Origin: Escherichia coli
GTDB lineage: Bacteria; Pseudomonadota; Gammaproteobacteria; Enterobacterales; Enterobacteriaceae
Strand: one strand, 5' to 3'
Assembly: GCF_001677475.2 (NCBI RefSeq)
Contig: NZ_CP015229.1
Length of the DNA stretch: 64,000 nucleotides
Positions 49,761 through 55,670 of this stretch are shown here, piece after piece; position 1 is the first letter of the stretch, and the number at the start of each line of letters is the position of its first letter. The notes below the pieces were generated by a model that was not told the DNA's origin, did not search any database, and was given only the letters and a program-made list of their open reading frames with translations. Both the position numbers and the translations under genes were made by a program.

Positions 49761-51299
49761 ATGCAACAGCAAAAACCGCTGGAAGGCGCGCAACTGGTCA
49801 TTATGACGATTGCGCTGTCACTGGCGACATTCATGCAGGTGCTGGACTCCACCATTGCTAACGTGGCGATCCCCACTATCGCCGGGAATCTGGGCTCATC
49901 GCTCAGCCAGGGAACGTGGGTAATCACTTCTTTCGGGGTGGCGAATGCCATCTCGATCCCGCTTACCGGCTGGCTGGCAAAGCGCGTCGGGGAAGTGAAA
50001 CTGTTCCTCTGGTCAACCATCGCCTTTGCTATTGCGTCGTGGGCGTGTGGTGTCTCCAGCAGCCTGAATATGCTGATCTTCTTCCGCGTGATTCAGGGGA
50101 TTGTCGCCGGGCCGTTGATCCCGCTTTCGCAAAGTCTATTGCTGAATAACTACCCGCCAGCCAAACGCTCGATCGCGCTGGCACTGTGGTCGATGACGGT
50201 GATTGTCGCGCCAATTTGCGGCCCAATCCTCGGCGGGTATATCAGTGACAATTACCACTGGGGCTGGATATTCTTCATCAACGTACCGATTGGCGTGGCG
50301 GTGGTGTTGATGACACTGCAAACCCTGCGCGGACGCGAAACCCGCACCGAACGGCGGCGGATTGATGCCGTGGGGCTGGCACTGCTGGTTATTGGTATCG
50401 GCAGCCTACAGATTATGCTCGACCGCGGTAAAGAGCTGGACTGGTTTTCATCACAGGAAATTATCATCCTTACCGTGGTGGCAGTGGTGGCTATCTGCTT
50501 CCTGATTGTCTGGGAGCTGACCGACGATAACCCGATAGTCGATCTGTCGTTGTTTAAGTCGCGCAACTTCACCATCGGCTGTTTGTGTATCAGCCTCGCG
50601 TATATGCTCTACTTCGGCGCTATTGTTCTGCTGCCGCAGTTGTTGCAGGAGGTCTACGGTTACACGGCAACGTGGGCAGGTCTGGCCTCTGCGCCGGTAG
50701 GAATTATTCCGGTGATCCTGTCGCCGATTATCGGCCGCTTCGCGCATAAACTGGATATGCGGCGGCTGGTAACCTTCAGCTTTATTATGTATGCCGTCTG
50801 CTTCTACTGGCGTGCCTATACCTTTGAACCGGGTATGGATTTTGGCGCGTCGGCCTGGCCGCAGTTTATCCAGGGGTTTGCGGTGGCCTGCTTCTTTATG
50901 CCGCTGACCACCATTACGCTGTCTGGTTTGCCACCGGAACGACTGGCGGCAGCATCGAGCCTCTCCAACTTTACGCGAACGCTGGCGGGGTCTATCGGCA
51001 CGTCCATCACCACCACCATGTGGACCAACCGCGAGTCGATGCACCATGCGCAGTTGACTGAGTCGGTAAACCCGTTCAACCCGAATGCCCAGGCGATGTA
51101 CAGTCAACTGGAAGGGCTTGGGATGACGCAACAGCAGGCATCAGGCTGGATTGCCCAGCAGATCACCAATCAGGGGCTGATTATTTCCGCCAATGAGATC
51201 TTCTGGATGTCAGCCGGGATATTCCTCGTCCTGCTGGGGCTGGTGTGGTTTGCTAAACCGCCATTTGGCGCAGGTGGCGGCGGAGGCGGTGCGCACTAA
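49761..51299 (+). CDS. emrB: Multidrug efflux MFS transporter
   Basis: Start MQQQKPLEGAQLVIMTIALSL; 512 aa. Confidence 0.9.
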   Translation: MQQQKPLEGAQLVIMTIALSLATFMQVLDSTIANVAIPTIAGNLGSSLSQGTWVITSFGVANAISIPLTGWLAKRVGEVKLFLWSTIAFAIASWACGVSSSLNMLIFFRVIQGIVAGPLIPLSQSLLLNNYPPAKRSIALALWSMTVIVAPICGPILGGYISDNYHWGWIFFINVPIGVAVVLMTLQTLRGRETRTERRRIDAVGLALLVIGIGSLQIMLDRGKELDWFSSQEIIILTVVAVVAICFLIVWELTDDNPIVDLSLFKSRNFTIGCLCISLAYMLYFGAIVLLPQLLQEVYGYTATWAGLASAPVGIIPVILSPIIGRFAHKLDMRRLVTFSFIMYAVCFYWRAYTFEPGMDFGASAWPQFIQGFAVACFFMPLTTITLSGLPPERLAAASSLSNFTRTLAGSIGTSITTTMWTNRESMHHAQLTESVNPFNPNAQAMYSQLEGLGMTQQQASGWIAQQITNQGLIISANEIFWMSAGIFLVLLGLVWFAKPPFGAGGGGGGAH

Positions 51300-51307
51300 G
51301 GTTGTCA

Positions 51308-51331
51308 AAGGGAGCTGCGGCTCCCTTTTTA
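51308..51331 (+). terminator. Rho-independent terminator after emrB
   Basis: GGGAGCTGCGGCTCCC hairpin followed by TTTTTA. Confidence 0.6.
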
Positions 51332-51556
51332 TTTGCTCATTCTGCAAACGGTTGTTTTATCCACTCATTCGGTGTATCTTTTCGCCGCCCCAAACTCTTC
51401 CATTCACCATTAACCGGTTCTGAGCATTCGCTCAGGTTGTTAATTCTCTTTTTCTTTCGCCCTCGCTTTCGCGGGTGATACTCACATTTTTCTTTTAACC
51501 CCATAACTCGCACCCTCGCGGGCGTACATTTATTACACACAAAATAATGGATTATT

Positions 51557-52264
51557 ATGAATACCCAACGAAAATACGGGAGAACCTGGCATTACCCTTT
51601 CTCCCCAGGCACCACCAGCGATGACCGTATTAACACCGATTACTGGCAGGATTTACAGGCCATCACGCAATTGGTGCACACAGAAAAACTCGACGGTGAA
51701 AATAACTGCCTTAACCGCTACGGCGTGTTTGCCCGTTCCCATGCCGCGCCTACGCAGTCGGCATGGACCTATAAAATTCGCCAACGCTGGCAACTGCTGA
51801 AAAACGATCTCGGCGATCTGGAGTTGTTTGGTGAAAATCTTTATGCCGTCCATTCGATTGAATATCGCGCCCTGGAGCAGGATTTTTATCTGTTTGCCGT
51901 TCGCTGCCAGGATATGTGGCTGAGCTGGGAAGAGGTGCAGTTTTACGCCGCTCTGTTTGATTTCCCCTGCGTTCCCGAAATCTCCGGCCCGCAGCCGGGG
52001 AATGATGAAAAAAGCTGGCAACGTGATTTTCTGGCGCTGACCAATGCGCGCGGCGCGTTCGATCCCTGGGATACGCAAACCGGGCAACCCTGTACGCTGG
52101 AAGGCATTGTCAGCCGAAATCGTGACGCGTTTTCCGTCGCTGACTTTTCGCATAACGTCTTCAAGTATGTGCGCAAAAATCATGTCAAAACCACCGTGCA
52201 CTGGAAACGACACTGGCAACGGGCGCGGATGGCCCATGAGTTCGCTTATGGAGAACAGTCATGA
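51557..52264 (+). CDS. Minimal RNA/DNA ligase-like nucleotidyltransferase (putative RNA ligase)
   Basis: Covalent nucleotidyltransferase motifs in canonical order: [11 protein letters not shown] (KxDGxN), [35 protein letters not shown]; 235 aa; not present at this junction in K-12 as I recall it. Confidence 0.65.
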
Positions 52265-53373
52265 TTTGGCAGCTTACCGACGACAAACGCTGGTCGACGC
52301 TACGCCAGCGTTTCAGTTGGGTTGAGGAGATGCATCACACGCCACAAGACCCGGAGCATCATGGTGAAGGTGACGTCGGCGTGCATACGGAAATGGTGCT
52401 TAACGCCCTCGTTACTCAGCCAGAATTCCAGCAACTCCCCGCTCAACAGCAGGAAGTTTTATGGGCGGCGGCGTTATTGCATGATGTTGAAAAGCGCAGC
52501 ACTACCGTGCAGGAAAACGGACGTATTCAGTCTCCAGGCCATGCTCGTCGGGGCGAACTGACGGCCCGACAAATTTTATGGCGCGATATCCCAACGCCGT
52601 TCGTGCTACGCGAGCAAATTGTTGCGCTGGTGCGTCTGCATGGGTTACCGCTATGGTTACTGGAACGTCCGGAACCGGAGCGTTTGCTGCTCACGGCTGC
52701 AATGCGCATCGACACGCGTCTGCTCGCTTTGCTTGCTCGTGCCGACCTGCTTGGTCGCCAAAGCCCGGATCAGCAATCAATGCTGGAACGCATCGATCTG
52801 TTCGAGCTGTTTTGCCATGAGCAACAATGCTGGGGAAAAGTGCGCCCGTTCGTTTCTGATTCCGCACGCTGGCACTACCTGACTCATGAGCAAAGTTCTC
52901 CTGATTTTGTTCCCTGGGGGGCTGAACCTTTTGAGGTTATTTTGCTGTGTGGCTTACCGGGTATGGGCAAAGATCGCTATATCAGTGAACAGTGCCAGGG
53001 AATGGACGTTATCAGCCTTGATGATATGCGGCGGCGAATCAATGCCAGCCCGGACGACAAAACCGCCACCGGGCGTATTGTGCAACAGGCAAAAGAAGAG
53101 GCGCGCGTTTTTTTACGCCAGAAAAAGCCGTTCATCTGGAATGCAACGAACATTACCCGCCAGCTGCGTAGCCAGCTCATCAGCTTGTTTACGGCCTACG
53201 GTGCAAGGGTAAAAATTATCTATCTGGAAGTGCCGTGGGCACAATGGAAGCAGCAAAATGCCAGGCGTGTGTATGCAGTTCCTGAAGTGGTCGTAATGCG
53301 GATGGCCTCAAGGCTGGAAGTTCCTCAACCTGATGAAGCACATAGCGTGGAGTATCGGGTGATTGAAAGGTAA
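52261..53373 (+). CDS. HD-domain phosphohydrolase fused to P-loop NTPase/kinase (putative HD-Pnk-type polynucleotide end-healing enzyme)
   Basis: N-terminal HD signature ([14 protein letters not shown] ... LLHDVEKR), C-terminal P-loop [13 protein letters not shown] with downstream [12 protein letters not shown] overlaps the ligase stop (ATGA). Confidence 0.6.
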
Positions 53374-53378
53374 AAAAA

Positions 53379-53411
53379 CCGGGCGGTGCTGTCACCTGCC
53401 CGGCTTCTTTT
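53379..53411. terminator. Bidirectional rho-independent terminator between the HD/P-loop gene and luxS
   Basis: CCGGGCGGTGCTGTCACCTGCCCGG hairpin flanked by an A-run on the left and a T-run on the right. Confidence 0.55.
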
Positions 53412-53421
53412 GTTCCACTGA

Positions 53422-53937
53422 CTAAATGTGCAGTTCTTGCAACTTCTCTTTCGGCAGCGCCAGCTCTTCGTTGCTGTTGATGCGTACGTCACGTTCCAGA
53501 ATGCTACGCGCAATATCCTGCGCTTCCTGCAACGAGTGCATCTGGTAAGTGCCACACTGGTAGACGTTCAGTTCTGGGATCTGATTCTGATCCTGCACTT
53601 TCAGCACGTCTTCCATTGCCGCTTTCCAGGCATCAGCAACACGCTGCTCATCTGGCGTACCAATCAGACTCATATAAAAACCGGTGCGGCAGCCCATTGG
53701 CGAGATATCGATAATCTCTACACCATTACCGTTAAGATGGTTACGCATAAAACCAGCAAACAGGTGCTCCAGGGTATGGATCCCTCTTTCTGGCATCACT
53801 TCTTTGTTCGGCACGCAGAAGCGCAGATCGAACACGGTGATTGCGTCGCCATGCGGGGTGTTCATTGTTTTCGCCACCCGAACTGCAGGCGCTTCCATCC
53901 GGGTATGATCGACTGTGAAGCTATCTAACAACGGCAT
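53422..53937 (-). CDS. luxS: S-ribosylhomocysteine lyase (autoinducer-2 synthase)
   Basis: 171 aa [14 protein letters not shown]...[10 protein letters not shown] (HxxEH metal motif). Confidence 0.9.
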
Positions 53938-54005
53938 TTAGCCACCTCCGGTAATTTTTTTAAAAATTTTCTGAACTCTTTCTTCCCAGGCGAGTCTGAG
54001 TATAT

Positions 54006-54079
54006 GAAAGACGCGCATTTGTTATCATCATCCCTGAATTCAGAGATGAAATTTTGGCCACTCACGAGTGGCCTTTTTC
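54006..54079 (+). ncRNA. micA: MicA (SraD) small regulatory RNA
   Basis: GAAAGACGCGCATTTGTTATCATCATCCCTGAATTCAGAGATGAAATTTTGGCCACTCACGAGTGGCCTTTTT in the luxS-gshA intergenic region, ending in a terminator hairpin plus T-run. Confidence 0.75.
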
Positions 54080-54086
54080 TTTTCTG

Positions 54087-55670
<1,584 letters not shown>

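Follow-up and report, generated by a model that had tools for sequence, protein, structure and literature searches.

The Escherichia coli contig NZ_CP015229.1 (assembly GCF_001677475.2), from which we analysed one stretch of 64,000 nucleotides (hereafter the window), carries between emrB and luxS a cassette of two overlapping genes. The first, open reading frame (ORF) 1, encodes an RNA-ligase-type nucleotidyltransferase, and the second, ORF2, encodes an HD phosphoesterase domain fused to a P-loop kinase domain. We propose that together they make up a heal-and-seal module for cleaved RNA, probably ribosomal RNA (rRNA) or transfer RNA (tRNA) damaged by ribotoxins, a reading that we consider reasonably likely. 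Judged by its sequence, the pair belongs to a known and partly characterised family, of the kind described in Deinococcus and Runella, and is not a new system. As the earlier note on this DNA had it, emrB is directly followed by luxS in K-12: the intergenic gap of MG1655 measures 63 bp and holds no cassette.

ORF1 matches the Pfam family RNA_ligase (PF09414) with an E-value of 4.4e-28 and has no NCBIfam equivalog. The ligase motifs that the earlier note had read from the translation (KLDGEN, FGE, EGIVSR, KYVRK) are all present in the order it gave, and the full series runs KLDGEN (motif I), FARSH (Ia), FGEN (III), FYLFAVR (IIIa), EGIVSR (IV) and FKYVRK (V). The gene and its landmarks lie as follows.

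51557..52264, plus strand: ORF1, ligase-like protein of 235 aa
51572-51628, plus strand: family-specific N-terminal element of 19 residues
51686-51703, plus strand: motif I, KLDGEN, with the predicted AMP-accepting lysine K44 at 51686-51688
51827-51838, plus strand: motif III, FGEN
51851-51865, plus strand: family-specific HSIEY
52100-52117, plus strand: motif IV, EGIVSR
52160-52177, plus strand: motif V, FKYVRK
52178-52225, plus strand: basic C-terminal tail, NHVKTxxHWxRxWxRA

Across 61 diverse homologues, residues K44, D46, G47, E93, Y103, E182, G183 and K203 are invariant, and three elements that mark the family, KYxRTxH...SPG...DD, HSIEY and VRKxHVxT..HW, are nearly so; the family itself comprises 1283 clusters at 50% identity. 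An AlphaFold model based on the 61-sequence alignment is confident (pLDDT 95.1), and it most resembles adenylyltransferase domains from RNA ligases. Of the 235 residues, about 175-186 align to such domains; what is left is an N-terminal segment of 37 residues and, at the C-terminus, a basic tail of 30. We found in ORF1 no appended substrate-binding domain, whether C-terminal or an N-terminal OB domain, of the sort carried by the Rnl1-Rnl6 clades. ORF1 is best described as a stand-alone adenylyltransferase domain of the ATP-dependent RNA-ligase type, for which charging with AMP and end sealing are predicted activities. Matches between the ligase and hemocyanin entries of the PDB, obtained in a single-sequence search, were discarded as spurious and repetitive. 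Bare-ligase homologues at 33-45% identity are also found in jumbo phages (LR756502.1, LR745206.1, LR756500.1 and MF403008.1, the last being Atu_ph07), in Caulobacter phages, and on large plasmids of Deinococcus, Bacillus cereus and Rhodobacter.

The earlier note had described the second protein as a fusion of HD and P-loop domains, and this description is borne out. The C-terminal half of ORF2 matches Pfam AAA_33 with an E-value of 3.5e-30; the N-terminal half matches Pfam HD only weakly (E 0.021), although its HD ligands are invariant across the Enterobacterales and Bacteroidota homologues.

52261..53373, plus strand: ORF2, HD-Pnk, 370 aa
About residues 1-215 of ORF2: predicted HD metal-dependent phosphoesterase domain, ligands H34, H74-D75, H94, H127 and D162
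52474-52506, plus strand: HD motif, LLHDVEK
About residues 225-360 of ORF2: predicted P-loop 5'-OH polynucleotide kinase domain
52951-52974, plus strand: P-loop, GLPGMGKD
53011-53034, plus strand: ISLDD, with the predicted catalytic Asp

In NCBIfam, ORF2 has weak matches to the kinase of bacterial Pnkp and, at 4.5e-5, to the CCA-adding enzyme in its HD region. A profile search of the PDB returned the tRNA(Sec) kinase PSTK (1.8e-10), the kinase of Clostridium thermocellum Pnkp (8.8e-9) and, at 4e-3, T4 Pnk. Kinase residues K237, D254, R257, R303 and R336 are invariant among the homologues. The Walker A motif had been called atypical: its GKD is indeed there, with Asp in place of the usual Ser/Thr, but it is no local oddity, as GLPGMGKD or a near G..G.GKD form occurs in all 171 of the clade members whose motif can be recognised. 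ORF2 is accordingly shaped like an HD-Pnk, and both 5'-OH kinase and 2',3'-phosphoesterase activities are predicted for it.

We scanned one genome per species for relatives, which matched 344 species, and retained 80 loci for all neighbourhood counts. In 80/80 the ligase gene lies immediately upstream of the HD-Pnk gene on the same strand, and the ligase stop and HD-Pnk start overlap or lie no more than 4 nt apart at 76 of 81 loci (the 80 plus the E. coli reference locus), usually with a GGAG-type ribosome-binding site inside the ligase gene's 3' end. In the window the two codons share the sequence ATGA at 52261-52264. The E. coli ligase is 62-65% identical to its Bacteroidota homologues and the HD-Pnk 55-58% (one homologue being from Dyadobacter). 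For both genes, within Escherichia as well as between genera, the ratio of nonsynonymous to synonymous substitution (dN/dS) is 0.03-0.11, which argues that these are not chance ORFs; the ratio indicates strong purifying selection on both. The ligase also has relatives within large fusion proteins that carry end-healing domains, one of which unites a 2H phosphoesterase and two ligase domains with NT5C phosphatase and AAA_33 kinase domains. Three proteins of 1000-1400 aa of this 'Swiss army knife' kind (P0348, P0327 and P0285) contain the ligase domain twice, with either a 2H phosphoesterase or an RWD domain and, further, NT5C phosphatase and AAA_33 kinase domains.

In the mechanism that we propose, transesterifying nucleases would leave 2',3'-cyclic phosphate or 3'-phosphate ends opposite 5'-OH ends. 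The HD domain of ORF2 would clear the 3' end of a 2',3'-cyclic, 3'- or 2'-phosphate and the P-loop domain of ORF2 would phosphorylate the 5'-OH end, yielding 3'-OH and 5'-phosphate. ORF1 would then charge itself with AMP on K44, pass the AMP to the new 5'-phosphate and join the ends. Since ORF1 has no substrate-binding domain, and isolated adenylyltransferase domains of other ligases charge themselves but do not join ends, it probably needs a substrate-holding partner in trans, most likely the co-translated HD-Pnk, or else the substrate particle itself; such a dependence fits both the strict coupling of the genes and the dependence on DR_B0098 reported in Deinococcus. The substrates would be 16S or 23S rRNA, or tRNA anticodon loops, cut by ribonuclease toxins of the colicin, contact-dependent inhibition (CDI) or type VI secretion system (T6SS) type, and the module would serve as an ATP-dependent alternative to RtcB. 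We favour RNA of the translation machinery as the target because ORF1 has an RNA-ligase-type fold and because the neighbours that recur beside the pair in other taxa are RtcB, PrfH and Tpt1.

An rtcB-family gene lies directly upstream of the pair in 24 of the 80 loci (Serratia, many Bacteroides, Mucilaginibacter, Dysgonomonas), and in 15 of the 80 prfH stands between rtcB and the ligase gene, with PrfH scoring 322 bits against a cut-off of 167. Eight more loci, from Bacteroides, have rtcB, ligase and HD-Pnk without prfH. The four-gene arrangement is found at these loci:

rtcB-prfH-ligase-HD-Pnk, one strand, Serratia and Bacteroidota: L011-L015, L031, L034, L039, L048, L053, L057, L058, L074, L079 and L082

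The RtcB proteins of Serratia and Bacteroides are only about 29% identical, so two distinct types of RtcB associate with the pair. Tpt1 is encoded near the pair in 3 of the 80 loci, and one Dysgonomonas locus has rtcB, prfH, tpt1, ligase and HD-Pnk in that order. PrfH and RtcB2 are a ribosome rescue and 16S rRNA repair pair that counters colicin E3; in Serratia and many Bacteroidota they lie directly upstream of the module under study and are read in the same direction, and that module would likewise counter ribonuclease toxins. The chemistry would differ, as RtcB joins 3'-phosphate and 5'-OH ends with GTP, whereas our pair would use 3'-OH and 5'-phosphate ends with ATP. The PrfH/RtcB literature that we searched makes no mention of an adjoining ATP-dependent ligase or kinase, which shows only the silence of the texts searched. 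At two Bacteroidota loci a very basic protein of about 245 aa, with no NCBIfam match, heads the cluster (L073 5398-6135; L074, some 4.2 kb upstream of HD-Pnk). Burroughs and Aravind are said to have described 'highly charged helical' accessory proteins near prfH-rtcB, and this protein might be of that type.

The earlier note had also seen a resemblance to HD-Pnk and ligase pairs described in other bacteria, and full-length comparisons support it. ORF1 is 36% identical to DR_B0100 (LigB/DdrP) of Deinococcus radiodurans, and ORF2 is 28% identical to DR_B0098, the Deinococcus HD-Pnk (E 3e-31). Both operons begin with a ligase consisting of the adenylyltransferase domain only, with shared N-terminal, HSxxY and C-tail signatures, and end with a kinase of the same HD plus P-loop architecture. 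They differ in that the Deinococcus operon is megaplasmid-borne and radiation-induced while the E. coli pair is chromosomal, in that the Deinococcus P-loop is a canonical GSGKS rather than the GMGKD of the E. coli clade, and in that a PARG-like gene, DR_B0099, for which E. coli has no counterpart, separates ligase and kinase. The intervening PARG strips ADP-ribose off 5'-phosphate ends (PMC11833690). DR_B0100 takes up AMP on K40, the equivalent of K44 in ORF1 (PMC1997131), and DR_B0098 is a 5' kinase.

The main rival to an RNA substrate, put forward for the Deinococcus ligB operon, is that the pair repairs DNA strand breaks: HD-Pnk would heal 3'-phosphate and 5'-OH ends, left for example by oxidative or radiation damage or by nucleases that yield 3'-phosphates, and the ligase would seal the nick. 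In Deinococcus radiation induces the operon, and an HD-Pnk mutant shows sensitivity to both ionising radiation and mitomycin C (PMC6300522); DR_B0098 phosphorylates a 5'-OH DNA oligonucleotide; and ligase activity of DR_B0100, on DNA, has been reported only with DR_B0098 and PprA (PMC6300522). Yet the fold and profile of ORF1 are closest to RNA ligases and not DNA ligases, the ligase lacks any OB or DNA-binding domain, and the neighbours conserved elsewhere (RtcB, PrfH, Tpt1) are RNA enzymes. Moreover, DR_B0100 alone ligated no DNA (PMC1997131), and in one study a DR_B0100 mutant was as radiation-resistant as the wild type (PMC6300522). On balance we regard DNA repair as unlikely.

The second relative with a published biochemistry is the pair of Runella slithyformis, which we compared by published description only. 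That description (PMC6097658) gives an HD-Pnk with an N-terminal HD phosphoesterase and a C-terminal kinase, active as a 2',3'-phosphoesterase and a 5'-OH kinase, and a ligase ORF immediately upstream and overlapping, an order and overlap matched in E. coli. Unlike in E. coli, genes for Tpt1 and for a methyltransferase-HIT protein lie upstream, and neither adjoins the E. coli pair. The Runella HD-Pnk sequence itself was absent from our homologue search, which was seeded with Dyadobacter. Dyadobacter is in the same family as Runella, and Munir and Shuman reportedly found in 2017 that the Runella HD-Pnk removes 2'-phosphates as well.

DR_B0100 ligated neither DNA nor RNA (PMC1997131), and the Runella ligase forms ligase-AMP and seals none of the 3'-OH/5'-PO4 DNA or RNA tested (PMC6097658). 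A second rival takes this failure of two self-adenylylating orthologues on 2'-OH substrates at face value: ORF1 would not be a conventional sealer of 3'-OH and 5'-PO4 ends and would act either as a 2'-phosphate-dependent ligase of the Trl1 type, its junctions cleaned by Tpt1/KptA, or as an AMP transferase that caps or marks 5'-phosphate ends. In a profile search of the PDB, the top match to ORF1 was the adenylyltransferase domain of the Candida glabrata tRNA ligase (E 2e-4), and H99 of the near-invariant HSIEY aligns with the His that stands beside motif III in the fungal enzyme. In fungal tRNA ligase the 2'-PO4 is bound by this His and by two Arg that closely follow motif V, and the adenylyltransferase domain on its own self-adenylylates without ligating. 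Where the fungal Arg pair lies, motif V of ORF1 leads into an invariant tail of basic character, with R206, K207, H209, K211 and R222 among its basic residues, and the fusion of relatives to a kinase and a 2H phosphoesterase reproduces the Trl1 domain set. Tpt1 is a neighbour in Runella (PMC6097658) as well as in the few loci counted above.

Fungal Trl1 (Rnl6) and the E. coli pair do share an adenylyltransferase, a P-loop kinase and the processing of 2',3'-phosphates. Trl1, however, has all its activities on one polypeptide, which includes a 2H cyclic phosphodiesterase and reads the 2'-PO4 through a helical C-domain that holds the Arg pair, whereas the partner in E. coli is an HD enzyme, a type that in Runella reportedly removes 2'-phosphates too, and ORF1 has the 30-residue basic tail in place of a fungal-type C-domain. 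In ORF1 the motif III Glu and the His also lie 6 residues apart and not 9 as in fungi, and linkage to Tpt1 is rare (3/80). K-12 keeps kptA without having this ligase. Taken together, a 2'-phosphate-dependent or end-capping ORF1 seems to us improbable.

The heal-and-seal logic is shared with other systems. T4 Pnkp with Rnl1 and the bacterial Pnkp/Hen1 system mend ribotoxin-cut RNA by combining a 5' kinase and a 3' phosphatase with an ATP-dependent ligase, and the T4 and C. thermocellum Pnkp kinases are homologous to the kinase domain of ORF2. The E. coli pair departs from them in having an HD phosphatase rather than one of the DxDxT or calcineurin type, a ligase without a C-terminal specificity domain, and two polypeptides. 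The cassette has no third gene, and so no Hen1 methyltransferase, and it has no calcineurin-type domain. PADLOC returned no family match for either protein, and for this reason we do not class the pair as a catalogued defence system.

Several further observations, along with that empty PADLOC result, the failure of both orthologues to ligate and the radiation and mitomycin C phenotypes of Deinococcus, weigh against an RNA repair module directed at the translation machinery. Adjacency to rtcB or prfH is limited to the 24 of 80 loci given above. Within E. coli, rtcB and prfH are not adjacent to the pair, in the window or elsewhere; rtcB2-prfH occupies a separate locus, yafP-pepD, unlinked to it. 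HD-Pnk would moreover destroy the very ends that RtcB needs, so that the two routes would compete at any one break. We found no report on the expression or phenotype of the pair in E. coli, and the inactivation of one gene in some lineages (see below) indicates that its function is dispensable in some niches. The earlier note had labelled the cassette as one for RNA end healing and sealing; RNA is still the likely substrate, though the Deinococcus operon is tied to radiation and mitomycin resistance, and sealing is a prediction only, given that both studied orthologues form ligase-AMP and ligate nothing tested.

In a more novel reading, PrfH/RtcB ribosome repair would have the pair as its second arm, one driven by ATP, with a ligase that would act only on a special substrate, either toxin-cut rRNA in the ribosomal subunit with HD-Pnk as adaptor, or an end bearing 3'-OH and 2'-PO4. 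We find this version rather doubtful. If it were true, either substrate would explain why the Runella and Deinococcus ligases self-adenylylated without ligating in the two studies, and in the 2'-PO4 case bacterial Tpt1/KptA would acquire the natural substrate that has been missing for it.

The earlier note had spoken of an insertion of the cassette. The pair, however, directly follows emrB in Escherichia coli, Escherichia sp., Phytobacter, Klebsiella spallanzanii, Kosakonia, Enterobacter sp., Superficieibacter and an Enterobacteriaceae metagenome-assembled genome, with luxS next in most of these loci, and synonymous divergence between the emrB-linked genera is saturated. Similarity to K-12 ends just past the emrB stop codon and restarts about 6 nt past the luxS stop. 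A check of the cassette edges for direct or inverted repeats and insertion sequence (IS) elements found none, which disfavours insertion by a mobile element. Because the pair follows emrB in seven genera and is not flanked by repeats or IS, the K-12 state is more probably a loss, and the pair is probably an old enterobacterial resident that has been repeatedly lost, a history that fits better than insertion.

A survey of the junction across E. coli, suggested by the earlier note, places the cassette in 999 of 5426 complete genomes (about 18%), invariably on the chromosome, and finds it absent from 4427. Its genes are not named and characterised there, being annotated only as 'RNA ligase family protein' and 'ATP-binding protein' or 'AAA family ATPase'. 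The window allele is at most 97.6% identical to those of other E. coli carriers, and the flank at most 98.7%. In an ST73-type lineage (ST, sequence type) a 10-bp deletion, corresponding to window positions 51905-51914, frameshifts the ligase after residue 117; this allele is present in 85-87 of 998 carriers, among them Nissle 1917, CFT073, ABU 83972, ATCC 25922 and clone D, so that the site is undamaged in about 91% of carriers. In O145:H28 strain RM12761 a TGG->TGA change, equivalent to window positions 52915-52917, produces W219* in HD-Pnk and cuts the kinase off from the HD domain. Both genes are intact in the window, in the type strain (ATCC 11775) and in ZH063, an ST131 strain. The published colicin E3 work on RtcB2-PrfH used ATCC 25922, which, like the other popular B2 models Nissle and CFT073, has a frameshifted ligase, so that existing E. 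coli work on these strains does not test the module. For comparison, rtcB2 is full length in a total of 2674 of the 5426 E. coli genomes; it is interrupted by ISEc20 in O145 strain RM12275-C1, and in K-12 it is reduced to the ykfJ fragment (L083 2968-3703).

Such losses and broken alleles raise the question of whether the cassette is, in E. coli, a functionless and decaying remnant of an old enterobacterial module. Its absence from most complete genomes, the ST73-type frameshift and the W219* allele would fit. Set against these are the intact ORFs in the strains just named, the predominance of intact carriers at the deletion site, the retention of all active-site residues, and a dN/dS within Escherichia of 0.03-0.10, which denotes strong constraint. 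For the window allele in particular we judge decay very unlikely.

The remaining features of the locus frame the two genes. The earlier note had them bracketed by the emrB terminator and a bidirectional terminator, and both hairpins do fold.

51307..51328, plus strand: intrinsic terminator hairpin of emrB, followed by a U-run, at the left edge of the cassette (terminator scan; -15.7 kcal/mol, z -3.3)
51329..51556, plus strand: conserved non-coding operon leader, with sequence blocks common to 7 enterobacterial genera
About 53376..53408, both strands: bidirectional intrinsic terminator, from folding, serving the cassette (plus) and luxS (minus)

The last hairpin, with an A-run on one side and a U-run on the other, has a folding energy of -18.0 kcal/mol on one strand (z -2.6) and of -25.8 kcal/mol on the other (z -6.7); luxS ends at 53422. 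The leader, of some 230 nt, contains an invariant hairpin, CUGAGC/GCUCAG, at 51419-51436 (-12.7 kcal/mol, z -3.5). Two more of its elements are GC-rich and hairpin-like, and its AATAATGGATTATYATG start region is conserved. A candidate promoter, TTGTTT ... TATCTT at about 51353-51381, was spotted by eye, and a consensus promoter scan gave no sigma-70 site upstream of the ligase gene. The leader has no Rfam match, and as RNAalifold detected almost no covariation in it, we make no claim of structured RNA beyond the one invariant hairpin; it may combine a promoter with a structured 5' leader. Across 51000-54300 the sole match of an Rfam E-value scan was the small RNA MicA (54006-54077, 83.9 bits), which lies between luxS and gshA, the same placement as in K-12.

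Laboratory E. coli is usually credited with the RtcB route alone for RNA repair. It is also treated as having no polynucleotide kinase, as one paper states outright. About 18% of complete E. coli genomes, the type strain and an ST131 strain among them, carry an intact-looking kinase/phosphatase and an ATP-dependent ligase. What is new here is the link to a ribosome-repair operon, the age of the enterobacterial locus and the presence of broken alleles in model strains. The ligase family has been a standing puzzle, as both studied orthologues charge with AMP and join nothing. The recurrent position of the pair behind rtcB-prfH in Serratia and Bacteroidota suggests substrates, namely colicin E3-cut ribosomes and toxin-cut tRNA, that could be offered to it in a tractable organism.

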